Positions 1-53,766 of a DNA stretch of 64,000 nucleotides are shown in pieces (the first letter of the stretch is position 1; each line of letters opens with the position of its first letter). The notes under the pieces are model-generated. The model saw only the letters and a program-made list of their open reading frames with translations. It made no database searches and was not told the origin of the DNA. The translations under genes were made by a program, and so were the position numbers. The DNA is from a virus: positions 7,211 through 71,210 of the IMG/VR virus record IMGVR_UViG_3300046538_000109; one strand, 5' to 3'.

Positions 1-11
1 CGGCCAATGCC

Positions 12-12000: not shown

Positions 12001-15000
12001 TCCCTGAGATCGCCGATGTCCAATACAACTTCGCCAACAACCGCTTCGAGCGCGTTTCACCCGTTCGCTCATCTGCCGACGAGTTACTGGCTGACGAATC
12101 CGCTGCGGGAGAACACGCTGCTGGCGCGCGGACTGGATCCGGCGACGCTCGAGGCGCTGTCGGACGAGGATCTGACGGCGCAAATGAAGGCGATGGGCAG
12201 CTCGGCCGAGTGGATGCAGTTGCTTTCACAGACACGGATTTTAAAGCTGTTGCACAATCGGTTCGAGACGCTTATGACGCTCTCTTTCCATCCCGTCGAG
12301 GAGCGTTTACGCCTCCGCTTGGCGTGTCTGATCTTAAGAGAGCGGCGCTTGTCGGTACCGTTTTACGCGAAGAGGGATCAGGAGCAGGGCGAGCGACACT
12401 GGATCACGTTTCAAACCGGCTGCTACAACGAGTAAGCCCGCAGCTCGACTCCGTTCTCTACAGCCGTGACGCGGAATACTTCCGCGATGACGGCAATTTC
12501 CTTCCTGCGATGCCTGCCGGCGTCGACGTCGGCGCCGCCGCGCCGCTCGAACTGAGCGGCCGCGAACTGCTGGACGCCAAGAAATCGACCGAGCAGCTGA
12601 ACCGCCAGCTGGCGAAGGCCGGCATGGAGCCGGTGCGCGCGCTGCGCGTGGCGCCGAACGCGAATTTCGCGCTGGCCCGCCAAATTGGCGAAGCGCTGGG
12701 CATCACGGTCAATTTCGTCAGTCGGAACCCGGAGTTCGAGGGCGTGGCGTACGATGGCATTGCCTACCTGGCTGACGGCATGCGCAACGCCGAGCTGGCG
12801 ATCGCCGGCCACGAGACGCTGCACGCGCTCGAGCAGGGCAACCCGGAGCTGGGCGCCAAGTTGCGCACCCAGATCCGCGCCTACCTCAAGGATGGCGTGG
12901 TCGAGGATCGCCAGGCGCGCGAGTATGCGGCAAACGGGCTGCAGGACGTCTCGGTCGAGCAGGCCGAGGCCGAAGTGATCGCCGATATCAATGGCGCGAT
13001 GTGGATGGATCCGGTGTTCTGGGCGGATCTGGCGAAGGCTGATCGCTCGCTGTTCCGCTCCGTGGCCTACAAATTCATGGAAGTGGCCGCCAAGGCCATC
13101 AAGAGCCTGCGCGGTTCGCGCTTTGACGTGAGCGCCCTGGTGCGCGACGTGGAAGCGGTGCGCGCGATCATGGTGGCCACCTGGGCCGAGCATGGCGCCA
13201 GCCGCGATGCCGCCGAACAGGCCAAACCGGCCGTGTTCAGCACGTCGAACCTGTCAGTCCCATTGCTTTTGCAGGATCGACTCACCGACACGGCGATAGC
13301 CGAAGAAGTGGAGAAACGCATCGGCCAGTTTGCGCACCAGCCCGCGATCCGGATCCGTGACAGCGCGGTTGGGGAACTCCCCGACGCGACAAGCGATGAC
13401 CGGGTGGCCGGGGCGGTCCACGATGGCGCCATCTACCTGTTCCGTGACCAGCTGCCCACCCGGATGGCGGTCCAGCGGACCCTGTTTCACGAGTTGTTCC
13501 ATTACGGGCTCCGACGTTTCCTGACAAAAGACGAGTATATCACCCACATGCTGGACCTCGCCGGGCGTGACGCCGACGTGGACCGGGATGCGCGCCGCTG
13601 GGCGGAAACCCCGGACGGGCGCCGCGCGGCGGCCTATGGTGGCGAAGACTATGCGCACGCCCGCGGCGTCGACGAGCTGCTCGCACAGATCGCCGAAACC
13701 AATGCAGGCGTCTTCCTCGACCAGTCGGTGCAGGCGCGCGTGCTGCGCACCGTGCAGGGCTGGCTGGCCAGCCTGGCACAGGCCTTCGGCATGAAGGCGA
13801 CGGCTGCTTACTTGCGCGGCATGAAAAGCGACGAGGCACGCTCCACGATTCGCTCGATGTTCGCCAAGCTGGAGCAAGACGCGCCGGCGTCGGTCGAGCC
13901 GTGGGGCCCCGCAGCCGACACGGCGTTCCGCCGCGACGGCGTCACGGCAACTCCCGCCTTCAAGGCGTGGTTCGGCGACAGCAAGGTGGTCGACGCCGAC
14001 GGCAAGCCGCTGGTGGTCTATCACGGCACCAACAAGGATATTTCCAAGTTCAAGGGCTCGCATATCTGGGTAACGGATGAGGCGGAACTGGCCAATGAAT
14101 TTGTGGCCGGCGGCCGCAGAAAGATGGGGGATAAGCCCGGGCGCGGCTCGGCCGTCTACCCGGTCTATGCGGCAATACAAAATCCCGTTGATCTGCGTGG
14201 ACTGGATCTGGCATCGGACGTCACCGTGCCGGAAATTCTCAAGCGCGCGGGCATTGCGCCCACCGACGCCATTCTGGAGAAGATTGCCCGGGAAAGCTTG
14301 GACAGTGGCTATGCCGGTGTTTCCGCAAGCCTTGGCGACCCGGTTCAATACCTCGTTGAAAAATACAAGGCCGGCAGTCGCTTGTCGAACCTGTTGGATA
14401 ACCCAGCGTTGAAGTCCGCGCTGGAAGCCGGCGGAATTGATGGCATCCACCTGACGGAGAAATATACCAAGGGCACGCGCAAGGCCCCAATATCGGCCCA
14501 GGCCGATACATATGCCGCCTTCCATCCGGCGCAGATCAAATCGGCCACCGGCAACAATGGCGAATTCGACCCCGGCAATGCCGGCATCGCCTTCAGCCGC
14601 GCCGGCCTGGGCGAGACGCTGGCCAGCGCCGCCAACAACGTCGCGGCGCTGCGCCTGCCGGCCGGTTACCTGGTGGGCGACCTGTTCAACCAGTCCGGCA
14701 AACTGAGCTGGTGGCACAAGACCATCGGCACCATGGAAAACCTGGCCAAGCGCCGGCCGGCGTTCGCCCGCGTCTACGCCGCGGTGCAGAGCTTCCTCGG
14801 CGACGTGTCGCGCTATGCGGTCCAGTCGGCGGATCTGGCGCCAACCCTGCTGCCAAAACTGGAAGACATCGCCGATATCATCGGCAAGAACCGCAAGAAG
14901 CCGCTGACCGGCGAGGATACCAAGGCGATCGGCGGGCCGATCTTCGAGGGCACGCTGGTATGGGCGCGTGACGCCAATGACGAGCCTGTCAAGATCGCCG

Positions 15001-18920: not shown

Positions 18921-19274
18921 TTAAACGCGTGCGCTCTCGAGTTGGCCGGCTTCATTCAGTTTGGCCGCCCACTGGGGCATGCGGCCGCGCCCGGTCCACT
19001 GGTTTTTAGGCTCCGATGGGTCACGATATTTCACTGCCACCGTGCCGGGCGCTTTCGGCGCTTTCATGCTGTCCATCAAATCTTTCAGGGGGACGCCGAC
19101 ACTGCGGGCGATCTCGTTAATCTGGGCGCGCGCGTTGTTCACGGCTTCCGCTTCGCGGGTCGCGATCACGCGGGCGACGGCGACTGTTAATTCTTTCAGT
19201 TCTGGCAGCGACAGGGAGGACGCCAGTTCGGTCAACTCGGACAGCGACAGCAGGGAAGCAGCAGGGGTATTCAT
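18921..19274 (-). CDS. H-NS-like nucleoid-associated DNA-binding protein (xenogeneic silencer family)
   Basis: 117 aa; N-terminal helical oligomerisation-like region; C-terminal KYRDPSEPKNQWTGRGRMPQW matches the H-NS/Bv3F DNA-binding signature (TWTGRGRxPxW). Confidence 0.7.
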   Translation of the reverse strand: MNTPAASLLSLSELTELASSLSLPELKELTVAVARVIATREAEAVNNARAQINEIARSVGVPLKDLMDSMKAPKAPGTVAVKYRDPSEPKNQWTGRGRMPQWAAKLNEAGQLESARV

Positions 19275-20428: not shown

Positions 20429-21154
20429 TCAGGCCGCTTCCGCCAGCTTCTCGTCACAGTCCCCGCAGCGCAGATTCAGCCCGGGCTTGCCCCACACGGC
20501 GACGTCGCAGCTGCAGCTGTATTTCGAGCGGTTGCTCTTGTTGGCGCCGCCTGCGGCCGTCGCCGGCGCGGCCAGCTGGAGGCCGCTGTCGGCGGCGATC
20601 GCGCTCGCCGCCGGCGGCAGATTCAGCACGATGCCGGGCGCCGCGGCGCCGGTGGCCGGCGGCCGCAGGGCGGTGAAGCGGTCATACCACGAGATCTTGA
20701 AATCGCTCGTGAGCAGCTTGGCGCACACGGCCAGGAAGCGGCCGCCGGCGATCGGGTAGTCGGCCACCTTGTCGCCGGTCTTTTTGCCGCCGGGCAGGCC
20801 GGTGGACGAGGGCATCAGTCCGATGGCCTCCATCTTGTCGCCCCATTCCTTGTCGTGATAGCGCCCGCGCGCCGGCGTGCCATGCTGGTGCTGCCACAGG
20901 TGCGCCATTTCGTGCGCGATGGTGGCCATGATTTCGACCAGCGGCACCACGGCGAAGCACTCCGGGTTCAGTGCGATCTCGTGCAGCTTTTCGCCCTGGC
21001 GGTTGCCAAAGCGGCCGGGCGAGAAGTAACCCATGGTGCCCGCTTTGCGTTGCAGTGTCAGCAGGCAGTCGCCCAAGCTGTTGTCGAACAGCTCGGCATT
21101 GAACGTGTCGTAGGCCTGCTGCAGCTCGGCGTAGACGATCGCGGTTTGTTTCAT
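20429..21154 (-). CDS. SprT-like zinc-metallopeptidase domain protein
   Basis: MKQTAIVYAELQQAYDTFNAELF... N-terminus typical of SprT family; HEMAHLWQH (HExxH) motif; C-terminal Cys cluster (CSCDVAVWGKPGLNLRCGDCDEKL) zinc ribbon. Start set to internal Met (codon 22 of the track ORF). Confidence 0.65.
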   Translation of the reverse strand: MKQTAIVYAELQQAYDTFNAELFDNSLGDCLLTLQRKAGTMGYFSPGRFGNRQGEKLHEIALNPECFAVVPLVEIMATIAHEMAHLWQHQHGTPARGRYHDKEWGDKMEAIGLMPSSTGLPGGKKTGDKVADYPIAGGRFLAVCAKLLTSDFKISWYDRFTALRPPATGAAAPGIVLNLPPAASAIAADSGLQLAAPATAAGGANKSNRSKYSCSCDVAVWGKPGLNLRCGDCDEKLAEAA

Positions 21155-21156
21155 GG

Positions 21157-21221
21157 CGTGTATTGTGCAATACAAATATGGAGGAAGATGAATTCTATCA
21201 ACTTTTGTATTGTGCAATACA
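21157..21221. promoter_or_regulatory. Two copies of an 8-2-8 palindrome TTGTATTG-TG-CAATACAA (21157-21174 imperfect 7/8; 21204-21221 perfect) overlapping the SprT-like start codon / divergent promoter
   Basis: Read directly; spaced ~47 bp centre to centre; region is AT-rich relative to genome. Confidence 0.5.
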
Positions 21222-21315: not shown

Positions 21316-21362
21316 ATCATAACGTAACATAACATTAGTAACATATCATAACGTAACATAAC
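21316..21362. promoter_or_regulatory. Direct repeat ATCATAACGTAACATAAC x2 (21316-21333, 21345-21362) immediately upstream of the kfrA-like start
   Basis: Read directly; 29-bp periodicity; AT-rich promoter-like region. Confidence 0.4.
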
Positions 21363-21373: not shown

Positions 21374-22441
21374 ATGGGTCGAGAGTCGGCAATTACATAT
21401 GAACAAGTGGTGGCAGCGGCGGACGCGATGAAGGCGGGCGGGCTGCGGCCGACGTCCCGCGCGATCCGGGAGCGACTGGGCAATACGGGGAGCATGGGCA
21501 CCATCAACAGGATGCTGGGGGAGTGGAAAGTGGGCCAGGAGCACGCGATCACGAGTGCCCTCGTATTGCCGTCCGGGATCCAGCGCGCCATCCTCGAATT
21601 CATGGGTCAGGAACTGTCAGCAGCGAAGGCGGCGCTTGAAGCCGACTTGGCCGAGCAGCATCAAGAGGTGGCCGATCTCGCCACCGAAAACGAGCGGCAG
21701 GCCTCGGAGATCGATGGCCACATCGCCGCTGTCACGGCGCTGCAGGTGGAACTGGCGATGCTGCAGGGGCGCGCTACCCAGGTAGATCTCGACTGCCATG
21801 CCGCGCAGGCCGAGGCCGAGCGGGAGCGCCAGGCGGCCGAGAGCGCGCGTACCGAACTGGCGAAAGCGATGTTGCGCCTGGAATCCATGCCGCGCCTCGA
21901 GGCCGATCTCGGGACGGTGCGCGCTGCGCTGGAGTCTGAGCAGCGCGCCCGCGTGGCCGCAGAGCAGAGCGCGGCCGTGCTCGCGGCGCAGCTGGTGGGC
22001 TGCAATGACCGTGGCGCCGAGCTCCAGAACCGCGAAGCCAAGGGGCTGGCGCACGCCGCCGAGCTGGAGCATCAGCTGCAGGCGGCGACGGCCGATGCCG
22101 GCAAGGCCCGCGCCGCGGCGCAGACGGTCGAGCAGCAAGCAGCGGTATTGGCGGCAAAACTGGAGGCCAGCGACCAGCGCGGCGCCGAAATCGAAGCGCG
22201 GGAGCAGGCGGCAATCGCGCGCTGTGGCGAGCTCGAGCGCCAGATCCAGGGGTTGACGCGAGAAGTCGGCACGGCCAACGTGGCGGTGCAGGCCAGCCAG
22301 GCGCGACTGGAAAGCGCCGCCCGGGAACTGGATGGGGCGAGAGAGCAAATGCGCACGGCGCGGGAGGACTCCAAGCGGGCCGGCGAAGAGGCGGCCGAGC
22401 TGCGCGGGCAGCTGGACGCGCGCGGCAAGGACAAGCAGTAA
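21374..22441 (+). CDS. kfrA: KfrA-like DNA-binding protein (N-terminal KfrA_N wHTH + long Ala/Glu/Gln-rich coiled coil)
   Basis: N-terminus MGRESAITYEQVVAAADAMKAGGLRPTSRAIRERLGNTGSMGTINRMLGEWK closely parallels the RK2 KfrA N-terminal domain; remainder is a ~300 aa alanine-rich coiled coil as in KfrA. Confidence 0.7.
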   Translation: MGRESAITYEQVVAAADAMKAGGLRPTSRAIRERLGNTGSMGTINRMLGEWKVGQEHAITSALVLPSGIQRAILEFMGQELSAAKAALEADLAEQHQEVADLATENERQASEIDGHIAAVTALQVELAMLQGRATQVDLDCHAAQAEAERERQAAESARTELAKAMLRLESMPRLEADLGTVRAALESEQRARVAAEQSAAVLAAQLVGCNDRGAELQNREAKGLAHAAELEHQLQAATADAGKARAAAQTVEQQAAVLAAKLEASDQRGAEIEAREQAAIARCGELERQIQGLTREVGTANVAVQASQARLESAARELDGAREQMRTAREDSKRAGEEAAELRGQLDARGKDKQ

Positions 22442-22469
22442 CGCTGCTGTTCCCTCTCCCGGCGCCCTG

Positions 22470-22634
22470 CTACGGCGCTGCGCGTGGCTTGCTTGGCCAG
22501 GCCAGCAGCAGGGCGCCGCCGGCGAGCGAAAGCGCGCCGATGACCGGGCGCGACACATCGAACAGCAGGGCCAGTGGCCAGCCGATGATCAGCGCGACGA
22601 GTATCGACATGCTGATCCAGGTAACAAATTTCAT
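22470..22634 (-). CDS. Possible small membrane protein (54 aa, two TM segments), below ORF-track length cutoff
   Basis: MKFVTWISMSILVALIIGWPLALLFDVSRPVIGALSLAGGALLLAWPSKPRAAP; convergent with kfrA. Confidence 0.25.
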   Translation of the reverse strand: MKFVTWISMSILVALIIGWPLALLFDVSRPVIGALSLAGGALLLAWPSKPRAAP

Positions 22635-22726
22635 CGTGGTTGCGGCCGCTGCCAGTAGTTGATTTTTTGCAAGTATAGCCCGGCGTCGACGCCGCCGGTT
22701 GCAACAATACGGTTCAACCGGCGGGT

Positions 22727-22763
22727 GTGAATGCGTGATTATTGCCCATAATCACGCATTCAC
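22727..22763. repeat. Perfect 16-bp inverted repeat GTGAATGCGTGATTAT-tgccc-ATAATCACGCATTCAC
   Basis: Read directly (arms 22727-22742 and 22748-22763, 5-bp spacer); no downstream T-run so not a canonical terminator; lies between kfrA and the recombinase gene. Confidence 0.55.
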
Positions 22764-22827
22764 CATTTGCCAACTTTTTCAGCGTAGAATTACCCAATCG
22801 TCAATCGCCCTACCCCATAGGATCGCC

Positions 22828-23145
22828 ATGCACACTCTGCAAATCAGCATCCCCGAAGACCTTGATTTCTCCGCCCTGAAATTAAGCCGCCACCTTGAAA
22901 GCGGCGACATCGAATTCGACTGGGCACCCGTCGACGCCATCTGCGCCGCCTCCGGCATCGACCCGGATGTCTTCCGGCAGACCGCCGAGGACAACCTGGC
23001 CAGCTTGATCTCAACGTGGTACCACATGCACCGCGAACTGGGCGGCGCCGCCGACCCGGTGGCCGAGCAGATCACCGCCGAGATCGAGGCCGAAGCGATC
23101 GCCGGTATCGCCGGTGTTCAGGAGGCGTCGGGCCGCCTGCAATAG
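22828..23145 (+). CDS. Hypothetical protein (~105 aa)
   Basis: ORF; start assigned to internal ATG at 22828 downstream of the inverted repeat. Confidence 0.35.
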   Translation: MHTLQISIPEDLDFSALKLSRHLESGDIEFDWAPVDAICAASGIDPDVFRQTAEDNLASLISTWYHMHRELGGAADPVAEQITAEIEAEAIAGIAGVQEASGRLQ

Positions 23146-23152
23146 CGGTCCG

Positions 23153-24304
23153 ATGGACAGCAACCAGTCGCGCCCGCCAGCGCGATTCCAGCCGGCCACC
23201 GCGCTGGCCAGCCCTCCCCTACTCCCTGGCGCGCTCACGCACGCCGACACTGACGCGCGCCTGGTGCGACTATGGCTGCAACGCCCCAACCTCTCCCCGC
23301 GCACCATCCGCGCCGCCGACAAGGAGGCGCACCGTTTCCTGCTCTGGTGCGGCGCACACGGTCTGCAGCTGCGCACCGTCTACTACGAGCACCTGCTGGC
23401 CTACGCCAACTTCATCAGCCAGCCCGAACCAGCCGACCAATGGATCGCGGCGGCGAAGTACCCGCGCACCGATCAGCGCTGGCGTCCCTTCCTTGGCCCG
23501 CTGTCCGAACCGTCGCAGCGGCAAACGCTGGTGATCCTGAAAGGATTGTTCGGCTGGGCGCGCGCAGCCGAGTACCTGGCCCACAATCCGGCCAAGCTGC
23601 TGGGTAACCTGGCGCTGTCGGGCGAGGAAACCGTGTCGCGCTTCCTGCCCTCCCCAGCCATCCCGTTGCTGCTGGCGGCCGTCGAGCAGCTGCCGTGCGA
23701 TCGTCCAGGCGAAGCGATCCGCAAGGCCCGCGCCCGCTTCATCATCCTGGCCTACTACCATTCCGCCGCTAGGCTGAACGAGCTGGTGCAGGCGGACATG
23801 CGCAGCATCGCGCGCGAGCGCGACGGCCGCTGGTGGCTGCACGTTCTGGGGAAAGGAAAGAAGAAGGGCAAGGTACCGGTGACGGATCAGCTGCTGGCGG
23901 AGTATCAACGCTACCGTGAAGCGCTTGGTTTGAGTGCCCTGCCCCGGCACGATGAATCATTGCCGCTGCTACTGGCGTCACGCGGGCCACAACGCCGGGC
24001 CAGCCACTACACGATTGCCCGCGCAATCAAGCTCGTCATGAAAAGCGCCGGCGCGCTGGCCAGCGCCGATGGCAACCCCGAACTCGCGCGGCGGATTGAG
24101 CAAGCCTCCACGCACTGGTTGCGGCATTCCTCGCTCACGCACCAGCTCGACGCCGGGATGCCGCTGACCACCGTGCAGCGGAACGGCCGCCACGCGCACA
24201 TCAAAACCACGGGGCGTTACCTGCATAAAGAGGATGATGCTCGCCACAACGAAACGCAGGACGCTTGGGTGAAACTTTACACAGAGGGCGATTATTCAAA
24301 TTGA
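23153..24304 (+). CDS. Tyrosine site-specific recombinase / integrase
   Basis: C-terminal catalytic signature ...HWLRHSSLTHQ...HIKTTGRYLH (R-H-R-Y family); N-terminal SAM-like core-binding region; stop codon lies inside a palindromic repeat. Confidence 0.8.
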   Translation: MDSNQSRPPARFQPATALASPPLLPGALTHADTDARLVRLWLQRPNLSPRTIRAADKEAHRFLLWCGAHGLQLRTVYYEHLLAYANFISQPEPADQWIAAAKYPRTDQRWRPFLGPLSEPSQRQTLVILKGLFGWARAAEYLAHNPAKLLGNLALSGEETVSRFLPSPAIPLLLAAVEQLPCDRPGEAIRKARARFIILAYYHSAARLNELVQADMRSIARERDGRWWLHVLGKGKKKGKVPVTDQLLAEYQRYREALGLSALPRHDESLPLLLASRGPQRRASHYTIARAIKLVMKSAGALASADGNPELARRIEQASTHWLRHSSLTHQLDAGMPLTTVQRNGRHAHIKTTGRYLHKEDDARHNETQDAWVKLYTEGDYSN

Positions 24305-24327
24305 ATAATTCGTAAGTCATTGATTTT
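24288..24327. repeat. 40-bp direct repeat copy 1 containing 9-1-9 palindrome ATTATTCAA-a-TTGAATAAT then TCGTAAGTCATTGATTTT
   Basis: Read directly; near-identical copy at 25887-25926; overlaps recombinase stop codon (24302-24304). Confidence 0.6.
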
Positions 24328-24452
24328 TAATGGCGTGATGGCGGAATATCCGCTGACGCACTTCGTTTGTCGCCCGTCGAATTTGCTTCGCAAATCAAGC
24401 AGCGCTGTCGCGCTGTCGAAGCCGGGGCGGTTTCTTGGGGTTGCTCGTAAGA

Positions 24453-25645
24453 TCATCCATCATGAATATTCGGCATTCTGGCTATCGCAGCGAAAGAGGG
24501 CAGGATCTTTGCCTCTGGCTCAACAAATGACAAGGCCCCAGTTACCTGATGTGCAGCATACTTAACATCGCGGTTTGCGGCCGGTGGTGGCGCCAGGCTG
24601 ATGGTCGGAGGGGGAGTGGAGGCAACGACATGCTTATATTTGGCTATGGTCTGCCTGGCTAGACCAGTGGCACGTCCGATAGCTGCTTGAGTCAGTGTCT
24701 CGCCGCGCGCCTGCAATAAGCGACATGCGGCGCGGATCTTCGCTTCCGTGACAGATTGGCGCTCTTGGTGCGTGCGGGTCGCGGCGCGCTTTTGGCGCTC
24801 GGCCAGCGGCAACTCGGCGTCAAGCTGCATCACGCCGCGGTTTGCGCGACGAGAGCCGGTGTAATGCTCCCATGTCCACCTGGCGACCGATTTCACCGTC
24901 GCGCGGACTGATGACAGCGCCAGATTCGCGGCGAATCCGAGATGCAGGAACTGATTCTTGCTGTGCGCATAGGCGTCCACCATGCGTGTGAAGGAGGCGA
25001 GGGTGCCGCTGGCACGTTCGCGGCCCACAATCGAGTAGGCGTAGTGACGAAGGTACTCGAACAGCGTACAGTGGCGGGAATGCGCAACCTCATCCAGCTG
25101 GACGCCTTTGCTCCAAGGGCTTGTCGTTACCAGATCCACGTAGTCGGCCAGATCGCCCAGTTCATAGACGGTGCTGTGCAGTTCGTGCGTCAGCCACCAT
25201 GGATGGCCCGGGGTCTTGGCCACCGGCCCCGAATGATATTCCGGGTCGGCTGACAGCTTGGCGGCGAATGCCTCATAGACCGCCTTCATATAGGCGATCG
25301 GCCCGCCACGAGCTGCTGCCGTCGTGCACACTGGCGTGATGGCATAGTAAAGATGGCTGTGCCCGTTCTTTCGGTTGCGCACGATCAGATTCGGCGCCGG
25401 CAGACCGGCGTCCTCCCAGCGCCAAGCGTCCGCGTGGTCGAGGTCAAAAATCAACCAGCTCACAAAGCCCGGGCGGTTTATCTGCATATACGGGTAACGT
25501 ATCGCGTACTCACGTGGTCTAATTCGCGTCGCCGTCTTATCGTCGCTGCAGCGAGGCAGGTAAGGCGCTTCCCGCAGAATGCGGTTAAGCGCCGTTCCCG
25601 CCTGGAAGAAGCGAACCTCTTCCGATTTTGGAACGTGCATAGCCA
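24453..25645 (-). CDS. Putative plasmid/phage replication initiator (Replicase/primase-like N-terminus, C-terminal HTH)
   Basis: N-terminal region (LIVRNRKNGHSHLYYAIT...) recalled as resembling the plasmid 'Replicase' primase-type Rep family; C-terminal HTH LTQAAIGRATGLARQTIAKY; sits between partition genes and recombinase, flanked by palindromic direct repeats. Start set to the Met of MAMHVPK. Confidence 0.5.
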
Positions 25646-25683
25646 TCCTTGCCCCTGGAGGGGGTAAAGTTATTGACAGCCAT

Positions 25684-25741
25684 ACCAAGGGGGACTAAGA
25701 TGAAGTTTCTCAGGCCTCGGGGTCTTTGGTCCCCCTTGGTA
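25684..25741. promoter_or_regulatory. 13-bp perfect inverted repeat TACCAAGGGGGAC ... GTCCCCCTTGGTA (32-bp spacer) in the rep promoter region
   Basis: Read directly; 40-95 bp upstream of the rep start. Confidence 0.4.
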
Positions 25742-25757
25742 CAGCATCTAATTGTTT

Positions 25758-25790
25758 AAAAACGCCTCGATCGCCAAATCGGGGCGTTTT
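25758..25790 (-). terminator. Intrinsic terminator for the parAB operon (minus strand)
   Basis: Stem AAAACGCC/GGCGTTTT with 15-nt loop; on the minus-strand transcript followed by UUUUUAAA. Confidence 0.45.
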
Positions 25791-25886
25791 GCTTTCTAGG
25801 GTGGGTTTCAGTGGCCCATATTCATCCTCGTAGAAATGACAAAAACCCAGCCGAAGCCGGGTTTTCAATTAATAGTTGTTCCTCAC

Positions 25887-25926
25887 GCGATTATTCAATT
25901 TGAATAATTCGTAAGTCATTGATTTT
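25887..25926. repeat. 40-bp direct repeat copy 2 containing 9-1-9 palindrome ATTATTCAA-t-TTGAATAAT; 8 bp downstream of parB stop (candidate parS)
   Basis: Read directly; differs from copy 1 only at the central base of the palindrome. Confidence 0.6.
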
Positions 25927-25933
25927 ATTGAAA

Positions 25934-26869
25934 TCAACTATTGCTCTCCTGCTGAATTAACGTCCGCAGGAACGATTCTATTTTGTCGCGATGCGCTTCG
26001 AGATCCAAATTGCGGTCTGCCAAGCGAATAGTAATATCGCGCTTCTTCACTATTGTAACGTATGCAGTATTGCCGGAAGAGTTTGAAATGATGCGATTGG
26101 GCACATCTTTTTTTTCGTCGTTCAGCCTGGAAATCTGCTGAGCCACCCAGGCCTTCAAGCCATTTTGATCGGCGCCTTCTTTGAATCGCTTGACGCCCTC
26201 CACGATTGTCGCCGTATGTTCTGGGTGGGCCTTCCACAGCGCTTGGATATTGGCGGCGGCGGACACGCCAAACAGGCCGGGATCATCATCCAGCAGCGCA
26301 AGAATAGGCGAGGGCAGTTCCAGCATCGACAGGCACTTGGACACGAAGCCCTGAGACTTGCCGACTTGTACTGCCAGCTCGGACTGGGTATTCGCCAGCT
26401 TCTCATCCAGTCGGCGGCGGAAGCTGCAGCCGTACTCGTAGTCGTGCGGCGGAGTGCCGGTGTTATCGATCAGGACAGCGGCAGCGGCTTCCTTGTTGGA
26501 CAGGGCGACAATCAGCACGCGCGCCTCTTCCCATCCAATGCTCAGGGCCGAGTACTTGCGGGTATGCCCTTTGACAACTTCTGCGCGCCCTGGTGTGACA
26601 ATCCGCACCTCGATGGGGTCAACCTGGCGCGTGGCCAGCATGGACTGGCCAATGGCATCTACGCGCAGTGGATCAATCTTGAGGCGCGTCTGGTAGGGGC
26701 TATCATCCAGTAGGTCCAGGCGCATCATCATTTCGGTGCCCGGGACCGGGGCTGTTGGGCCGCTCGGCGCATCCTGTGGCGCGAATGCCGCAGATGGAGT
26801 GATGCCGGTGGCCGGCACGACACGCCCGGATTGGATTAATCCGGATACCTTGAATCCTGGCTTGCTCAC
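25934..26869 (-). CDS. parB: ParB-family partition protein
   Basis: 311 aa; ParB/Srx-like N-terminal region and central HTH (ELAVQVGKSQGFVSKCLSML); translationally coupled to the upstream parA (ATGA-type overlap 26866-26869). Confidence 0.75.
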   Translation of the reverse strand: MSKPGFKVSGLIQSGRVVPATGITPSAAFAPQDAPSGPTAPVPGTEMMMRLDLLDDSPYQTRLKIDPLRVDAIGQSMLATRQVDPIEVRIVTPGRAEVVKGHTRKYSALSIGWEEARVLIVALSNKEAAAAVLIDNTGTPPHDYEYGCSFRRRLDEKLANTQSELAVQVGKSQGFVSKCLSMLELPSPILALLDDDPGLFGVSAAANIQALWKAHPEHTATIVEGVKRFKEGADQNGLKAWVAQQISRLNDEKKDVPNRIISNSSGNTAYVTIVKKRDITIRLADRNLDLEAHRDKIESFLRTLIQQESNS

Positions 26870-28089
26870 GCGGCTTCCTCCAGCTGGGCGGCCGGGCCGG
26901 CGCCGGCCAGGCGAATACTGTAGAGGCGAGTGAGGGACTTGGTCAGGTCGATAATGTCGCGTGCACCGCCGCTATTGGGCTCCTTTTCCAACACCGGACC
27001 ATTGGTATGGATGCTATCCGGGTCGGTTTCGCGCAAGAAGCCGACGAAGTCGCGCACGATGGTGTCATTAATCTTGTCCGGATACTTCGCCAGTAACTTG
27101 GAGAGGGAGAAATTGTGCGGTTTTTTCGTCTGGTTGTACTGATTCACGACGATATGCACGTCCAAGTTGATGCCCTGGCGGTTGAAGGCGGCATTGATCT
27201 CCTGCACGTTCGACGCCAGCACGTCCAGAGCTGCGATTGCTTGGCCCTCCGGCGATACCACGGTCAGTAGCGTTTTGCTGGCCACCATGAACGTGGTGGA
27301 GAGTAGGGAGGCGCCCGGAGCCGAGTCGATGACGATCACATCATATTTGCTAAAGAATTCCTGTTCCTGCTCCAGCAGGCGCTGGAATGCGAATTCACGG
27401 TTCATGATTCCCATCAACCAAGTGTCATCCACCATCGTGATATCGCTGGGGATCAGGTCGAGCATGCCCCCAGGGTAGACCGAGCGCACCGCTTGCTCAG
27501 GATTGGCAGGCTCGTTGCGTGCTGCGCGCTGCATCAACTTGGACACGTGGGTGATCTCTTCTTCCAGCCAGTTGATGCCGAACAGGGAGGTCAACGATGC
27601 CTGTGGGTCGCCGTCAATCAGCAGCACTTTGTAGCCGGACAGGGCAAGGCAACTGGCAACATTGCCCGTGATGGTCGTCTTTCCGACGCCGCCCTTGGCC
27701 ATGCGCGTATCAATGATCGGGGGAAGGTTGCGCGGTCGCGTGGCATCTTGAGGGATGCCCAGTAGATCCATGCGGATATGCCGAATTTCTTGCGCCGAAT
27801 ACAGCTTGTGTGAGTTATCGGTCGAGTCGCGGTAGCGAGCGCGGAACGTCTTGGGCGTGCCCGTGAAGCCGGTCAACTCCATGGCGAGTTTCGCCTTCAC
27901 CCCATCAAAAGATCGCATAATTTGCCTTGGTTCAAAAATAATGTTGCCTATCATATCTTTCTCAAGGGTTCTTTTCAATACGGTTTTTGAAAAATAAAGG
28001 GGAATCTGCAAAAAAAGGGCGTTGCTACGATTGCTTGGTCGCCATGGCGTGTACGTCGATGGCTTCTCGGAGGTCGGCATGCCAGTCAT
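26866..28089 (-). CDS. parA: ParA partition ATPase, type Ia (long N-terminal extension)
   Basis: Deviant Walker A MAKGGVGKTT preceded by ~120-aa N-terminal extension as in P1 ParA/F SopA; 407 aa. Confidence 0.85.
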   Translation of the reverse strand: MTGMPTSEKPSTYTPWRPSNRSNALFLQIPLYFSKTVLKRTLEKDMIGNIIFEPRQIMRSFDGVKAKLAMELTGFTGTPKTFRARYRDSTDNSHKLYSAQEIRHIRMDLLGIPQDATRPRNLPPIIDTRMAKGGVGKTTITGNVASCLALSGYKVLLIDGDPQASLTSLFGINWLEEEITHVSKLMQRAARNEPANPEQAVRSVYPGGMLDLIPSDITMVDDTWLMGIMNREFAFQRLLEQEQEFFSKYDVIVIDSAPGASLLSTTFMVASKTLLTVVSPEGQAIAALDVLASNVQEINAAFNRQGINLDVHIVVNQYNQTKKPHNFSLSKLLAKYPDKINDTIVRDFVGFLRETDPDSIHTNGPVLEKEPNSGGARDIIDLTKSLTRLYSIRLAGAGPAAQLEEAA

Positions 28090-28200
28090 CGCTGCCTAGA
28101 ATCCTATAGGCAGTTGCTCCATCGGCCGTGCCTCGCAGGAAGCCACCTGCAGTTGCAAGGTGGTCCAGCCGTTGCGCATCCGTCAGCTCGGGGATGGCAG

Positions 28201-28704
28201 TCATGCTGCGGCCGCAGTGCTCAGTAATTGGCGCATCATGGCCAAGTTTGCGGCGGCCCCAGCAGGGAGCCCCTTTCCAGCGATCTCGTGCGCAATGCGA
28301 CGGGTGGCGCAGCTGGCCAGCGCGCGTTGTTCGGCGGCGGCATGCGCCTGTTGCCGCTCGATGCGCGCAGCGGCAGCGGCGAACAAGTAAGCGGCGTGCT
28401 CGATGGCGGCCGCACTGAAGTCGTAGCCGGGCGCGGCGATGCGCAGCTGCGCCTGCTTGAGCTGGTGCAGGCGCGTGATGGGCCGCGCCCGGTGCTCAGC
28501 TTCCAACGCGAAGCCCGCCAGGTGGCGCATCGGCGCCGGCACATTGCAGGCGCGGCCGATGAAGCGCTGCAGGCGCCGAGGGGCGTAGAAATCGTCCTCG
28601 GTGAGCAGGGTGTACACGCAGCCAGGTGCAACGATGCCCAGCGCGGGCTGATGCCAGTAACCGGCACGCATGCGTGCCAACTCGGTCGCGGGACAGTGAG
28701 CCAT
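28201..28704 (-). CDS. Hypothetical protein (167 aa); coding status uncertain (overlapping + strand ORF of similar length)
   Basis: ORF only. Confidence 0.25.
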   Translation of the reverse strand: MAHCPATELARMRAGYWHQPALGIVAPGCVYTLLTEDDFYAPRRLQRFIGRACNVPAPMRHLAGFALEAEHRARPITRLHQLKQAQLRIAAPGYDFSAAAIEHAAYLFAAAAARIERQQAHAAAEQRALASCATRRIAHEIAGKGLPAGAAANLAMMRQLLSTAAAA

Positions 28705-29810
28705 TATTCGCAGGTGCTCGGCCAGGTCGACGCGGCGGTCGCCGCCGGCGCCGGCTGCTGAAGTGGATTGGTCATGGCGTGCACTCTTGAAGGTAGTTGT
28801 CGATGGTGGCCAGCAGGTCGGTCCGATACCCGCCCAGCGTCAGGGCGGTCATCGCATAGCCTTCGCTCGCGACGATCGCGCGTAGCTCGCGCAGGGCGCC
28901 AGTGGCCCGCTCGAGCTTCTGCAGGGTGGCGCGGGCCGACTGGGGCGGGGCGGGTGTTGCGTGGGTTGTGGCGGCCGGCACGGCTATGCTTGCATTTCCG
29001 AGCGGCAGGCGAGCGGGGCGGGCGAGCGGGGCGAGTGCATGGCGATGACGTTCGCGCAGACAAGGACGGTGCCCACGACGAGCAGCACCAGGGTGTAAAG
29101 CCGTTTCATTGCGGGGTCCAGTGGCTCAAGGCAAGGGGGAATGAGGCGGGGCGGTATGGGGTGCGAAAGCGTACTCTGCATGGATCCTCGGTCGAAGGTG
29201 GCGCCCTGGTGGGCAGGCTGGCGCCGGTTCGGCAAGAGCGCCAACAGGCAAGGCGGCTTGTCGAGTCTCCCCAGAAACGCAGTAAGGCAGCGGGCGGAAT
29301 GCCCGTCTGCCACCGCCTCGCGGCCGCCTTGCCTGTTGGCGCTAAAGAGGCGCACAGGCACGAATAATTGCCAGGCAGATACTACAACTAAAAATTGCAG
29401 ATGCGCAAGCATGTTGTGACGATTTATTTAAAAATTGTTACATGGCAAATGTTGCGATACTTACGCGATACTTGGGGGGCTTAATGCTCCTTTAATTGCC
29501 CTTGATGGATGGCGAGAGGTAGGGGCAGAGTGCGCGGTATACGTGGAACAACAACTTGATGGAAGAAAATAGAATGCGCGGTATAGGTTCGAGTAATACA
29601 GGGAGCGGCCCAGTTGGCGCGATTGATATTGGCAACATGGCACCGGATGAGGGGCGCCAGTCGCTCCTGGCCGCGTTTGACCGCGCCTCGCCGGCAGACC
29701 AGGCCTACGTGGTGAAAGTCGTGCTGTCGCTGACCGCAGTAGGCGACGAGGCTGTCGCAGCGGACGACGCGGCCGCCAGGGAGGCGCAGCTCGAGCGGGC
29801 GCGCCCGGGG

Positions 29811-30242
29811 TTACGACTTGTGCCGGGCGCGGGTCTTCGCCGGCAGGGCTTCAGGGGGTAGTCGCTCCGCATGGAGGGCGGCAGCGCGCAGCTGCCGTCT
29901 ACCTGTTTCGCTCAACTCACGATACAGGGTCAGCAGGTCGGCCTCTTCGAGCAGTACATACATCAGTATCCACTCCATAGGCGGCGGCGGTAGTGGCGCC
30001 GGTGGCGTATGCGGTGTGCTGCCAAATTTCAAATACTCCGGGGTCACGTTCAGATATCCGGCCACCTTGCGGAGGACGCGATCGCGTGGGAATTGCATTC
30101 CCTTTACCCACTTGTTGACTGCTTGCGGGGTGCACCCGATGGATCGGGCCATTTCCGATTGGTTTCCCCCGTTTTTCGTTTTCAGGGCCGCTTCCAGTCT
30201 CGCTGCGAACTCTTTGGTTGCCATATCGTCATACTTCTTCAT
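29811..30242 (-). CDS. cI-like repressor (XRE-family HTH)
   Basis: HTH_3 motif QSEMARSIGCTPQAVNKWVKG; divergent from a Cro-like gene across a palindrome-rich 92-bp region. Confidence 0.65.
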   Translation of the reverse strand: MKKYDDMATKEFAARLEAALKTKNGGNQSEMARSIGCTPQAVNKWVKGMQFPRDRVLRKVAGYLNVTPEYLKFGSTPHTPPAPLPPPPMEWILMYVLLEEADLLTLYRELSETGRRQLRAAALHAERLPPEALPAKTRARHKS

Positions 30243-30254
30243 TGGGTGGAGCAT

Positions 30255-30346: not shown

Positions 30347-30562
30347 ATGTTGGAATCAGGTATCGCAAAAGCAGTGCGCTTGGCGGAGAGTCAATCTGCC
30401 CTTGCAAGGTTGCTCAAGTGCACACCGCAGTGCGTGCAGCGCTGGGCCAAGCAAGGATTCGTGGCCGCAAAGCGCTGCAAAGATGTTGAGGCCGCACTGG
30501 GCGGGCGCGTGACGAGGGCGGAGCTCAACCCGTCGACGTTCGGCCCGGCAGCGCTGGCCTGA
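30347..30562 (+). CDS. Cro/YdaS-like small HTH regulator
   Basis: 71 aa, HTH SQSALARLLKCTPQCVQRWAKQG; position opposite the repressor gene. Confidence 0.6.
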   Translation: MLESGIAKAVRLAESQSALARLLKCTPQCVQRWAKQGFVAAKRCKDVEAALGGRVTRAELNPSTFGPAALA

Positions 30563-31611: not shown

Positions 31612-31790
31612 TCGGCTACGCAAGTACCATCGAAAAGTTCCGCGAGCGCACCGCCGCAAGCGTCGCGTATGTTCACCGCAAGCAAAAATGCGCCTGTGGC
31701 AAAGAGGCGCCGGCCAAGCAGTTGACCCAATACGGCAAGTGCGTGGCGTGTGTCCGGCTCGCGGCCGCAGCGATTCCGGAGGCGGCATGA
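31605..31790 (+). CDS. Small Cys-rich hypothetical protein (possible zinc finger)
   Basis: CACGKEAPAKQLTQYGKCVAC; ATGA overlap with the downstream dam. Confidence 0.25.
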   Translation: MLIGYASTIEKFRERTAASVAYVHRKQKCACGKEAPAKQLTQYGKCVACVRLAAAAIPEAA

Positions 31791-32638
31791 TCGACACAAT
31801 CAAGCCGGTCCTGCGCTACCACGGCGGGAAGTTCCGCCTGGCCCAGTGGATTATGTCGTTCTTCCCCGATCACAGCTGCTATGTCGAGCCGTTCGGCGGC
31901 GCGGCCGGCGTGCTGATTCAGAAGGAACGCGTCTATGCCGAGGTCTACAACGACCTCGATCGGGACGTCGCCAATTTCTTCGCTGTGCTGCGCGATCCTG
32001 AGCTGCGCCGCCAGTTGATCGAGGCCGTTGTGTTCACGCCCTACGCGCGCACCGAGTTCGAGCAGGCCTGGGAGCCCACAGACGAGCCGATCGAGTCCGC
32101 GCGCCGTCTGTGCATCCGTGCCCAGATGGGATTCGGATCCGCCGGCGCTACTAAGGGGACGACGGGCTTTCGCATCGACACCAAGCGCGAATACGGTACG
32201 GCCCAGCACCTATGGGCGCAATACCCGGCGGCGCTGGCGGCCGCCGGCGAGCGCCTCACTGGCGTGCTGATCGAAAACCGGCCGGCGCTCGAAGTGATCG
32301 CCGCCCACGACGCCCCGACCACGCTGCATTTCGTGGATCCGCCGTATGTGCACGCGACGCGGACCCATGGCGGCCGCAAGGGCTATCGCCATGAAATGAG
32401 CGACGAAGACCACCTCGAACTGATCGAATCGCTCGGCGAACTGGACGGCTTTGTCGTCCTGTCGGGCTACGATTCGGACCTGTATCGGTCGCGCTTGGCT
32501 GGATGGACCCGACACTGCACAACGTCCCGCATTTCAGGGGGGCGCGGCTCCGTGCTGCGCAATGAGGTTGTCTGGGTCAACCCGGCCTGCAGCGCCGCGC
32601 TCGCGCGCGAAGCTGCACAGCAGAGCTTGTTCGCATGA
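31787..32638 (+). CDS. dam: DNA adenine methyltransferase (Dam-like, D12 class)
   Basis: Motif I VEPFGGAAGV and motif IV DPPY (LHFVDPPYVHATR); N-terminal MIDTIKPVLRYHGGK typical of Dam. Confidence 0.85.
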   Translation: MIDTIKPVLRYHGGKFRLAQWIMSFFPDHSCYVEPFGGAAGVLIQKERVYAEVYNDLDRDVANFFAVLRDPELRRQLIEAVVFTPYARTEFEQAWEPTDEPIESARRLCIRAQMGFGSAGATKGTTGFRIDTKREYGTAQHLWAQYPAALAAAGERLTGVLIENRPALEVIAAHDAPTTLHFVDPPYVHATRTHGGRKGYRHEMSDEDHLELIESLGELDGFVVLSGYDSDLYRSRLAGWTRHCTTSRISGGRGSVLRNEVVWVNPACSAALAREAAQQSLFA

Positions 32639-32898: not shown

Positions 32899-33198
32899 AT
32901 GACGCCTATCCGCCGCTCGGCAAAGAACGAGGACTGCACGCTGAACATCCCCGGCCTCTGCGAGAACAAGACCGACACGACGGTGTGGTGCCACTCGAAT
33001 CTCTACACCGATGGAAAGGGAATGGGCATCAAGGCCGATGATGAAGCCGGCTGCTATGGGTGCGCGATCTGTCACGCGTTCTATGACGGGGGATGGACCA
33101 GCTATCCGGGCATGACCCGCGAACTGGTCGAGCAGTATTTCGCAATCGCCCGCGCCAAGAGCCGTCTGAAATTGAAGCACAAAGGATTAGTTGAATGA
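32899..33198 (+). CDS. YbcO-like (DUF1364) putative prophage nuclease
   Basis: CTLNIPGLCENKTDTTVWCHSN...GKGMGIKADD...GCYGCAICH parallels E. coli YbcO (CQVRIPGVCNGNPETSVLAHIR...GTGTKPPD...ACSACH); start at ATG 32899 with AAGGA SD gives 99 aa. Confidence 0.5.
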   Translation: MTPIRRSAKNEDCTLNIPGLCENKTDTTVWCHSNLYTDGKGMGIKADDEAGCYGCAICHAFYDGGWTSYPGMTRELVEQYFAIARAKSRLKLKHKGLVE

Positions 33199-34106
33199 GT
33201 ATTGTTTTAATGACACAGGCATGGGCTTCAACAATGTCTTCGGGCAAAAAGTTCGTGCTGCTCTCCCTGTGCGACAACGCCAACGAGCAGGGCATGTGCT
33301 ATCCGTCCGTCGGACTGATCGCGCAGAAGTGCACGATGGGCGAGCGCACCGTCCAGCAGCACCTGCGCGCCCTAGAAGAAGAGGGCATCATTCGCCGCGA
33401 AATGCGCGCCGGACGTCGCACCTGGTACTTCATCCACCCCGAGCAATTCCCGCAAACCCCCGCAGATAATGCACCCCCGCAGTACCCGCACCCCGCAGAT
33501 GACGACGTGATACCCCCGCAAGATTTGCCAAAAACCCCCGCAAAACTCGCACCCAGAACCGTCAAGGAACCATCACAGAAGCGTCAGGTGGTGCGCGCTG
33601 CGCGCTTACCCTCCGACTGGGTACTGCCGAAAGCTTGGGGAGAATGGGCAATGCAACACTGTCCCGAATGGACCGTCGAGCAGGTCCGGCAGATCGGCGA
33701 GAAGTTCAAGGACCACTGGATCGCCTTGTCCGGACAGCGGGCCAACAAGACCGACTGGCTGGCCACTTGGCGCAACTGGTGCCGCAATGAAAGCGCTCGC
33801 CAGCCGGCCGCCGGTGGCGCCAAGCAGGGCGGCGGAATGTGGTGGGCCAGCGACACGTCCATCCTGGCCAAGGGTGCGGAGCTGAACCTGCGACCGTATC
33901 CGGGCGAGGCCATGCCGGCGTTCAAGGGCCGCGTGCAGGCCGCCATCGACAACGGCGGCGTGGCTCCAGCGCCGAAGCCGAGCGTATTGCCGCCGCTGCC
34001 CGTGCCAACTGCTCCAGCCTCGTCCGACGGCAAGCGCGTCAAGCCGGAAGGCCTGGACCTCAAATCGCTCATCAGCAAAAACTATAAACGTATTAACAAT
34101 AACTAA
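33195..34106 (+). CDS. Phage replication-initiation protein (N-terminal HTH_36-like, W-rich C-terminal DnaT-like domain)
   Basis: KFVLLSLCDNANEQGMCYPSVGLIAQKCTMGERTVQQHLRALEEEGII motif; C-terminal WVLPKAWGEWAMQHCPEWT...WLATWRNW. Confidence 0.5.
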   Translation: MSIVLMTQAWASTMSSGKKFVLLSLCDNANEQGMCYPSVGLIAQKCTMGERTVQQHLRALEEEGIIRREMRAGRRTWYFIHPEQFPQTPADNAPPQYPHPADDDVIPPQDLPKTPAKLAPRTVKEPSQKRQVVRAARLPSDWVLPKAWGEWAMQHCPEWTVEQVRQIGEKFKDHWIALSGQRANKTDWLATWRNWCRNESARQPAAGGAKQGGGMWWASDTSILAKGAELNLRPYPGEAMPAFKGRVQAAIDNGGVAPAPKPSVLPPLPVPTAPASSDGKRVKPEGLDLKSLISKNYKRINNN

Positions 34107-37790: not shown

Positions 37791-37848
37791 GTTACACAAA
37801 ATCCGGTTACACAAAAAGTTACACAACGCCCATTTGTGCAACCTGCAC
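37791..37848. promoter_or_regulatory. Three direct repeats GTTACACAA (37791, 37806, 37819) followed by 6-3-6 palindrome TGTGCA-acc-TGCACA
   Basis: Read directly; between integrase 2 and the SPFH gene. Confidence 0.4.
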
Positions 37849-45908: not shown

Positions 45909-45984
45909 TGTCATGTAGCTCAGTTGGTAGAGCGCCGGACTGTTAATCCGGTGGTCGCTGGTTCGATCCCAGCCTTGACAGCCA
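45909..45984 (+). tRNA. tRNA-Asn (anticodon GTT), 76 nt with encoded CCA
   Basis: Cloverleaf folded by hand: acceptor TGTCATG/CTTGACA (one T:T mismatch at 6:67), D-arm GCTC-AGTTGGTA-GAGC, anticodon arm CCGGA-CTGTTAA-TCCGG, T-arm GCTGG-TTCGATC-CCAGC, discriminator G, CCA. Confidence 0.8.
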
Positions 45985-48803: not shown

Positions 48804-48827
48804 CGCGCGGCGCACCATCAACAACAA

Positions 48828-48852
48828 GCCATCCCCCGGGGTGGCTTTTTTT
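48828..48852 (+). terminator. Hairpin + T7 run between terL and portal (partial terminator/attenuator)
   Basis: GCCATCCCCC-GGGGTGGC then TTTTTTT, immediately followed by ATGAGCAACCAC. Confidence 0.45.
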
Positions 48853-53751: not shown

Positions 53752-53766
53752 TGCGGTAACACCCAG

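Follow-up and report, generated by a model that had tools for sequence, protein, structure and literature searches.

A probable podovirus-type phage-plasmid of Oxalobacteraceae with an exchangeable maintenance cassette

Phage-plasmids are now recognised as common, and those that have been studied well infect enterobacteria, Vibrio, Acinetobacter and Firmicutes and have the form of siphoviruses or myoviruses. Few phage-plasmids are podoviruses (Pfeifer et al., PMC7969092). Here we describe a 64,000-nucleotide (nt) stretch of viral DNA (positions 7,211 to 71,210 of the IMG/VR record IMGVR_UViG_3300046538_000109; "the window" below, to which all coordinates and strands refer) in which positions 21374-28089 code for KfrA, a tyrosine recombinase, Rep, ParB and a long-form ParA, flanked by a DarB-like giant gene and a cI/Cro pair. 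The first-pass annotation of this DNA had read these five genes as a plasmid-maintenance set inside a phage genome; all five are where it had placed them and give strong family matches, and the gene order embeds the kit in a complete phage genome with an N4-type capsid. We consider it probable that the window holds about 91% of a temperate podovirus-type phage of about 70 kb, with an N4-type capsid, an SU10-type portal and an Oxalobacteraceae host, whose prophage is a low-copy circular plasmid and is not integrated. This lifestyle is already known from P1; what is new is most likely an uncharacterised podovirus-type lineage of Oxalobacteraceae that has no described relative.

The likeness to P1 is one of function. 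Like P1, the element has a plasmid Rep and a separate lytic replicon, a long-form ParA with a helix-turn-helix (HTH) ParB, a tyrosine recombinase, a Dam methylase and a virion DarB, and its candidate parS site lies 3' of parB and includes a site for integration host factor (IHF). P1 is arranged likewise, with its parS downstream of parB and an IHF site within it. The virion genes, in contrast, are unrelated: the element has the N4-type capsid of a podovirus whereas P1 is a myovirus, and the capsid search returned no P1-like phage. P1 RepA is an iteron-binding initiator, whereas the Rep described here is of the ColE2/pPT23A type; immunity here depends on a cI/Cro pair; and ParA is shorter than that of P1, which is absent from the PDB matches of the window ParA. 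Only DarB is shared with Punavirus, and distantly, so that to judge from its sequence the element would work like P1 without being a P1 relative. The P1-like lifestyle proposed in the first-pass annotation can be retained for the functional logic but not for the virion, the Rep family or the immunity genes, which are unrelated to those of P1.

A second point of comparison is offered by the RepA-PFP plasmids pHS87a, pTiK12, pXAC33/64, pJG1 and pVF2. [quoted passage not shown] The element shares with these plasmids the PF03090 and PriCT_1 domains of Rep, a conserved 28-nt block and stem-loops upstream of rep. It differs from them in the surroundings of rep, which in the plasmids follows an operon of a short parA, a small parB and parC, and which in the window lies between two candidate parS sites of a ParB_N-type system, in a phage.

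Among cultured phages the closest by major capsid protein are Pseudomonas phage Rollin, Xanthomonas phage DES1 and Stenotrophomonas phage StenR_269 (39-43% identity), none of which has nucleotide similarity to the window. These three podophages with N4-like capsids have genomes of 61-66 kb and a gene for a very large virion protein; the StenR_269 paper mentions neither plasmid nor partition genes and reports no integrase that was clearly detected (PMC10747016). The Bcep22-like Burkholderia podophages BcepIL02 and DC1 and the Ralstonia phages Gervaise and Eline share the DarB-like core of the giant protein (47-49% identity over 1,500 amino acids), and their capsids are not among the matches of the window capsid. 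None of Rollin, DES1 and StenR_269 is known to form lysogens, and lysis of the host by StenR_269 is poor, which would suit a phage that is virulent or pseudolysogenic and in which the par genes do no more than stabilise a carrier state. We regard such an explanation as highly improbable for the element described here, which has a divergent cI/Cro pair, a plasmid Rep with a candidate origin, KfrA and a resolvase-type recombinase, and a relative of which is resident as a plasmid in a sequenced isolate.

Collinear relatives and extent of the element

The case for a temperate phage with an extrachromosomal prophage rests on indirect support from a closed circular syntenic plasmid, a circularly permuted contig of a relative and independent contigs whose layout fits closure. 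The first of these, the unnamed plasmid of Massilia violaceinigra B2 (NZ_CP024609.1), is closed circular, 87,120 bp long and collinear with the whole element. Its genes run from the giant PLxRFG protein through H-NS, KfrA, an integrase, ParB, ParA, cI/YdaS, the O-like initiator and a second integrase to the terminase, portal, capsid, tail fibre and endolysin, and from there back to the giant gene. Identities to the window are 75% for the giant protein, 48% for H-NS, 59% for KfrA (likewise with a KfrA_N domain), 59% for Int1, 66% for ParA, 35% for ParB, 57% for cI, 60% for Cro, 53% for the O-like initiator, 64% for Int2, 75% for TerL (the large terminase subunit), 55% for the portal and 67% for the capsid, and the two also share a palindrome with an IHF consensus 3' of parB (see below). 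The Massilia plasmid differs in its Rep slot, which holds a 274-amino-acid protein of no known family instead of the window's Rep, and in some 15-20 kb of additional cargo (RHS, IS6/IS66 and two-component genes). It is annotated as a plasmid only, and a literature search that lay outside the supplementary lists of Pfeifer et al. found no paper describing it, or this lineage, as a phage-plasmid.

The second relative, a 70,830-bp contig of Janthinobacterium sp. S3T4, has the open reading frame (ORF) of the giant gene open at both ends, i.e. it is circularly permuted, and the junction between tail fibre and giant gene, absent from the window, is continuous in it. As for the element itself, three Logan contigs of run SRR26077549, 100% identical to the window, jointly span window coordinates -6,812 to 63,378 and thus reach 6.8 kb past its left end. 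The only places at which these contigs break are the inside of a tRNA-Asn gene, a tandem repeat of 108 bp at 56.4-56.7 kb and, from 63.35 kb onwards, the repeats of the tail fibre, so that the assembly breaks sit in repeats and not at host junctions; no host genes were seen across the 64 kb of the window. If the outer contig ends abut in the tail-fibre repeat, the molecule would measure about 70.2 kb, where synteny with S3T4 predicts about 70.4 kb, and the contig layout is consistent with closure at about 70.2 kb. The circularisation that had been proposed as a check on the first-pass annotation is supported to this extent; the closing junction of this copy was not recovered, since a tail-fibre fragment used to bridge the window ends in one metagenome scan returned distant relatives only and not the window's own contig, and a scan of a genome collection returned relatives and no 100% match. 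Exact matches to window proteins were confined to Logan contigs and a single JGI contig of 1.7 kb. Likewise, the extrachromosomal prophage that had been claimed is corroborated through the Massilia plasmid and S3T4 and not for this copy itself, whose plasmid state would be expected by analogy with its relatives.

In the sense of Pfeifer et al. (2021, PMC7969092), the element combines phage genes (TerL, portal, capsid, adaptors, tail fibre, endolysin and cI/Cro) with plasmid genes (a plasmid-type Rep, ParA, ParB and a candidate parS). The packaging, head, tail and lysis module, correctly described as full, extends from TerL to the tail fibre on the plus strand (47271-64000), with 55-75% identity between its genes and their counterparts on the Massilia plasmid. 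It comprises TerL (47271-48803), the SU10-type portal (48841-51216), the N4-gp56-type capsid (52774-53751), SU10-type adaptors (54226-55665), an endolysin (59887-60546) and a lysis protein, together with an internal virion protein (61074-62669) and a tail fibre, rich in repeats, which starts at 62662 and runs off the right window end. Because of the capsid, portal and adaptor types, and because no tape-measure-sized gene is present in the window, we assign the phage to the podovirus type. In-frame tandem repeats in the structural genes (56409-56706, period 108; tail fibre 63349-64000, periods 102 and 180) coincide with the breaks of the independent assembly and with the right window end. The lysogeny switch adjacent to the maintenance genes was also correctly recognised: a cI-like HTH repressor (29811-30254, minus strand; phrog_8, phrog_4, HTH_3) is divergent from a Cro/YdaS-like HTH gene of the YdaS family (30347-30562, plus strand). 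Virion production, like autonomous replication and the biochemical features discussed below, is predicted from sequence.

Scans with the C-terminus of the giant protein identified nine loci in Oxalobacteraceae genomes (Janthinobacterium, Massilia and an unclassified Greenland isolate) and 12 IMG/VR contigs, and many of these relatives are contigs of 70-95 kb, with 70-80 kb for contigs of Janthinobacterium or Massilia. No nucleotide-level relative of the maintenance module or of the structural half was found by megablast against 50,697 phage and 72,556 plasmid records. The Burkholderiales host suggested earlier fits these results, as all named relatives are from Oxalobacteraceae and the closest ParA is carried by Janthinobacterium lividum plasmids. 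Two of the relatives bring up the idea of a plasmid carrying a defective or captured prophage, which would make no particles and spread vertically or by other means: the Massilia plasmid is 87 kb long and laden with cargo (RHS, insertion sequence (IS) and two-component genes), and in Janthinobacterium sp. CG3 a composite transposon of the IS6 type interrupts the giant gene. A defective prophage is plausible for the Massilia and CG3 copies but not obviously so for the window copy, the modules of which are all intact, with long ORFs and no IS elements, and the size of which (about 70 kb) matches that of S3T4. The association of phage and plasmid genes over deep divergence further argues against a recent prophage insertion into a plasmid, and we hold a defective prophage to be an improbable explanation of the element.

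Replicon, partition genes and candidate centromere

The proposed plasmid replicon is centred on rep (24453-25640, minus strand). The ORF runs from 24453 to 25688, with a likely start at 25640 that gives a protein of 395 amino acids. The product is an initiator of the ColE2/pPT23A (RepA-PFP) type, with a match to the PF03090 Replicase domain (4.2e-47) that spans the full profile (1-130 of 130) and a PriCT_1 domain (PF08708, 5.7e-11). More than 300 plasmids of Comamonadaceae, Xanthomonas, Pseudomonas and Vitreoscilla, typed as rep_cluster_429 (MOB-suite) and including pHS87a, pJG1, pVF2 and Xanthomonas plasmids, carry a Rep that shares about 70% identity with it; tblastn found no relative of it in phage records, and none was found by sequence in the PDB. 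Inside the 3' end of rep lies a 28-nt block, GTTAAGTATGCTGCACATCAGGTAACTG (24539-24566, minus strand), which is our candidate for the plasmid origin. Over seven aligned rep 3' ends, where column identity averages 52%, this block (GTTAAGYATGSTGCACATCAGGTAACWG) is invariant in every one, third codon positions included, and it occurs in all nine loci that have this rep, three true plasmids among them, and in none of 165 other loci. It resembles the core of the ColE2 origin, ATCAGATAAC.

In the leader of rep (25641-25800, minus strand) a terminator-like hairpin, with A/T runs on either side, precedes a stem-loop of 20 bp. Folding of the 170 nt ahead of rep gave a minimum free energy of -62.8 kcal/mol (z -3.9), and none of 200 shuffled sequences folded as well; the hairpin and the stem-loop are both kept in a relative with a 63%-identical Rep. 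Alignment of the non-coding flanks of rep with those of plasmids pJG1 and pVF2 revealed no convincing similarity. The architecture of the leader matches that of the ColE2/RepA-PFP control region, and Rep expression is predicted by analogy to be controlled, probably, by an antisense RNA. Replicons of this class are also characterised by a primer that Rep makes and DNA polymerase I extends.

The partition genes have the features of a type Ia-like system. The parB gene (25934-26869, minus strand; TIGR00180, 1.5e-22) encodes a large ParB of 311 amino acids with ParB_N and HTH domains, which also matches HTH_ParB and, weakly, SopB_HTH and PRK13698. The parA gene (26866-27954, minus strand; ORF to 28089) encodes a long-form, type Ia-like Walker ATPase (AAA_31, 3.8e-30; phrog_164, 5.6e-35). 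We place its start at M46, giving 362 amino acids where the ORF has 407, because a relative has an in-frame stop upstream and all homologues share the methionine at residue 46. With this start, KGGVGKT, a deviant Walker A motif, begins at about residue 86, and alignments to SopA, RepA of repABC and Vibrio ParA2 begin 35-40 residues ahead of this motif, whereas short ParAs align only from the motif onwards. The first-pass annotation was thus right about the presence of an N-terminal extension and not about its P1/F-like length: about 85 amino acids precede the motif, and not about 130, so that the extension is shorter than in P1 and F. The closest ParA (76% identity) is found on J. lividum plasmids of 357-440 kb.

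The centromere of a type Ia system would be expected downstream of parB, and a candidate occurs there. A 38-bp direct repeat, AATCAATGACTTACGAATTATTCAAWTTGAATAATCGC, is present in the window in exactly two copies, where none is expected by chance, and the two copies bracket rep: parS-A (24288-24325, minus strand) overlaps the int1 stop codon and parS-B (25887-25924, minus strand) follows the stop codon of parB at a distance of 10 nt. The repeat has two parts, first a perfect match to the IHF consensus WATCAANNNNTTR (AATCAATGACTTA in parS-A) and then the palindrome ATTATTC-N5-GAATAAT. In the fetched loci, about 3 Mb in all, this palindrome occurs at only nine places in seven loci. Each of the seven has a copy immediately 3' of a gene homologous to parB, even where the ParB identity is no more than 29-44%, and the IHF consensus is found at an identical offset in every instance examined. 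The central pentamer varies between elements and, where both copies were compared, is the same or the reverse complement within an element; the CG3 relative has compensatory changes in the two arms (ATTATTA-N5-TAATAAT). Since the site looks like the target of a DNA-binding protein that acts as a dimer and is associated with parB, we propose it as a candidate parS of the P1 style, with the conserved palindrome and IHF consensus as the putative type Ia centromere.

Second copies of the palindrome in two of the relatives (loci L022 and L028) sit away from parB. We also considered the 38-bp repeats as targets of Int1 and ranked this below the parS assignment, as a copy is found 3' of parB in every relative examined, including L022, which has no integrase-sized ORF near its palindrome. 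The distance of the site to int1 varies as well, from an overlap with the stop codon in the window to 1.2 kb in the Massilia plasmid. In the Massilia plasmid the two site copies are in tandem, 97 bp apart, 3' of parB, whereas in the window and in two relatives with the same Rep family they flank rep. This difference suggests that a rep-ori unit was inserted between the centromere repeats or recombined in with them.

Cassette exchange, recombinases and the question of integration

The maintenance genes belong to a 5.9-kb segment (22816-28708) that comprises orf105, int1, parS-A, rep with its candidate origin, parS-B, parB, parA and orf167. Over 5,926 nt this segment is 90.3% identical to IMGVR_UViG_3300046660_000403, a 76.8-kb IMG/VR contig, the flanks of which are at most 66-79% identical or unalignable and which lacks this KfrA. 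The window segment has a G+C content of 0.57, compared to about 0.64 in its flanks. At its ends are two genes without a known family, orf105 (22828-23145, plus strand), which encodes a small acidic protein directly upstream of int1 and is 66% identical in the close relative, and orf167 (28201-28704, minus strand), with 91% amino acid identity there; in the Massilia, CG3, L017 and L022 relatives the slot beside parB is filled by other genes of no known family. The 90% segment amid diverged flanks, the lower G+C content, the differing slot genes and the plasmid-borne relatives of ParA and Int1 all argue that the maintenance kit is a plasmid-derived, exchangeable cassette on a conserved phage backbone, a pattern described for phage-plasmids in general (Pfeifer et al., PMC7969092). 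A perfect palindrome with 16-bp arms (GTGAATGCGTGATTAT / ATAATCACGCATTCAC; 22727-22763), which lies barely beyond the left end of this cassette and about 65 nt upstream of the operon of the small ORF and int1, is a candidate operator; a related palindrome lies upstream of kfrA in the Massilia plasmid.

The element has two tyrosine recombinases. The int1 gene (23153-24304, plus strand; PF00589, 2.6e-16; phrog_1, 8.7e-26) has an ORF from 23114 and an independent gene call from 23153; all catalytic residues are present in its translation, which also has weak XerC/XerD-like matches. More than 1,700 plasmids, the majority from Burkholderiales and Enterobacterales, carry homologues with about 40% identity, and we propose that Int1 serves in the resolution of plasmid multimers. 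The int2 gene (36422-37486, plus strand; phrog_1, 1.7e-42) is of the phage-integrase type, with intact catalytic residues, and is 81% identical in the S3T4 contig. About 300 nt downstream of int2, within a 420-nt non-coding stretch, three GTTACACAA repeats (37791-37830) may be arm-type recombinase sites or an operator.

Int2 in particular raises the alternative of a temperate phage that integrates through Int2, or Int1, and in which rep and par would serve a transient state before integration, a carrier state or an alternative lifestyle. The resemblance of the repeats downstream of int2 to arm-type sites would be in keeping with this, and so would the two integrases listed below. The window sequence is, however, uninterrupted through both integrase regions, the syntenic relative that has both integrases is a closed circular plasmid, and neither a tRNA nor another recognisable att target was found beside int2 homologues when these were looked for. 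A replicon, centromere and partition set is moreover conserved across relatives that are only 50-80% identical. Integration is for these reasons an unlikely state of the prophage in our view, and a low-copy plasmid remains the reading that we prefer.

Several observations weigh against a plasmid prophage with the replicon and centromere proposed here. Two intact integrases in the window would allow chromosomal integration, and Int2 homologues at 53-58% identity occur on many viral contigs of 33-40 kb, some of them from isolate genomes. The window ends inside the giant gene on the left and in the tail-fibre repeat on the right, and its DNA is apparently metagenomic. In the 13 kb that surround the closest plasmid-borne ParAB, that of J. 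lividum p356839, the parS palindrome was not found. The candidate origin reads AGG where ColE2 primes at AGA. Finally, the Massilia relative has no homologue of this Rep, so that the replicon here would be a swapped-in part.

Starting from the gene identities, the synteny with a closed plasmid, the conservation of sites and the exchange of the cassette, we infer the following sequence of activities. During lysogeny the cI-like repressor would silence the lytic genes, while Rep would start theta replication at the short origin that its own gene contains near the 3' end, its synthesis being throttled by the stem-loop leader, probably via an antisense RNA. ParB would load on the two 38-bp parS sites that flank rep, each with its palindrome beside an IHF consensus as in P1 parS, after which the long-form ParA ATPase would segregate the copies; Int1 would resolve multimers in a Cre-like manner, and KfrA and H-NS may act as accessory DNA-binding factors. 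Upon induction, lytic replication would be driven by the lambda-O-like initiator, and the 6,204-amino-acid DarB-like protein would be packaged with the DNA and probably ejected with it to counter host restriction.

Beyond this one element, we see an about even chance that it belongs to a lineage of Oxalobacteraceae phage-plasmids that has yet to be described, of podovirus type and with N4-like capsids, several hosts being glacial or polar by name or source, in which an exchangeable maintenance cassette of about 6 kb holds a ColE2/pPT23A-type rep-ori between two P1-style centromere copies (IHF site plus ParB box), and in which diversification of replicon and centromere lets distinct versions coexist in one cell. 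The plasmid module moves as a unit between related phages, as 5.9 kb at 90% identity are found within genomes that are otherwise 40-80% identical, and such exchange bears on the evasion of incompatibility by phage-plasmids and on their gene exchange with plasmids. The element is not surprising in principle; it is useful as a dissectable example in environmental Betaproteobacteria, through its delimited minimal replicon (rep, the 28-nt origin candidate and the control leader), its candidate centromere and a relative that can be worked on in culture, namely the syntenic closed plasmid of Massilia violaceinigra B2.

Two observations on the hosts touch the same subject. The assembly of one Greenland isolate, Oxalobacteraceae bacterium GrIS 1.11, has five distinct 3' ends of the giant gene on five contigs, 86-94% identical to each other at the nucleotide level, which suggests several related elements in one strain or culture. 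Among the hosts of relatives considered, Massilia violaceinigra B2 is recorded as coming from a Tianshan glacier, and Massilia frigida, Janthinobacterium sp. CG3 and the isolate 'GrIS' are presumably from cold habitats, to judge by their names.

Giant protein, KfrA and neighbouring genes

The left 17.5 kb of the window (1-17540, plus strand) are the 3' 94% of a single ORF that starts about 1.07 kb left of the window and encodes a giant DarB-like virion protein, 6,204 amino acids long in the independent Logan assembly. Its domains include FtsK_gamma, InPase, C5- and N6-methylase, SNF2, LPD37, ART-PolyVal and a C-terminal PLxRFG 'tail-700' domain. The methylase-helicase core of 1,500 amino acids is 47-49% identical to 'DarB-like antirestriction' proteins of the Burkholderia and Ralstonia phages mentioned above and 26% identical to P1 DarB (49% of the query, E 5e-16), in agreement with its earlier designation as DarB-like. 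In Janthinobacterium sp. CG3 (scaffold3.3; positions 1-11300 of the fetched locus) a composite transposon, in which two identical IS6/IS240 transposase genes bracket a chemoreceptor gene, CheW and another transposase, cuts the giant gene to its last 430 codons, with an ArdC/MPTase/Toprim polyvalent ORF upstream of the transposon; this element looks like a decaying copy.

Between the giant gene and the cassette lie genes for an H-NS family protein (18921-19274, minus strand; PF00816, 5.4e-11), found at the same position in relatives, and a SprT-like metalloprotease (20429-21217, minus strand; PF10263, 1.6e-11), 70-80% identical in relatives, followed by kfrA (21374-22441, plus strand). KfrA, the exact protein of which is present on a 52.8-kb Logan contig, has a KfrA_N DNA-binding domain at residues 8-113 (PF11740, 1.8e-19), and the remainder is a long alanine-rich coiled coil with weak SMC and Sec3 matches. 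Three direct repeats in the kfrA promoter region (CATAACGTAACATAA-like, period 15; 21316-21362) are a candidate KfrA operator, and the Massilia plasmid has an analogous repeat, TATCATATCGTATCAT, ahead of its own kfrA. In the interval from kfrA to the int1 operon, a 46-codon ORF (22470-22610, minus strand), also called as a gene in the Logan assembly, encodes a strongly hydrophobic peptide that could be the small membrane toxin of a post-segregational killing system, or nothing.

On the other side of the cassette, a 21-nt perfect inverted repeat with a 65-nt spacer (29237-29257 and 29323-29343) separates the par module from the cI-like gene. The cI/Cro pair is followed by a stand-alone D12 (Dam-type) N6-adenine methyltransferase (31688-32638, plus strand; phrog_56, 6.5e-71; PF02086, 9.8e-14), identified as Dam in the first-pass annotation too, an HNH endonuclease gene and the lambda-O-like replication initiator (33195-34106, plus strand; phrog_391, phrog_11896, phrog_1032, HTH_36), which we propose to be the lytic replicon, separate from Rep. 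Upstream of the terminase genes is a complete tRNA-Asn (GTT) gene (45909-45984, plus strand), at the position of which S3T4 has no tRNA; an Rfam search of the window found tRNA only and no c4-like RNA. Two Logan contigs overlap by 30 nt inside this tRNA and the assembly graph branches there, as if the sample held another sequence that shares part of the tRNA. Outside Oxalobacteraceae, a 54-kb circular 'plasmid' of Endozoicomonas gorgoniicola (NZ_CP103299.1), which has no annotated par genes in its first 50 kb, carries an N4-gp56-type capsid gene (46% identical), a terminase, an LPD38 giant protein and RecT/YqaJ, and may be another phage recorded as a plasmid.

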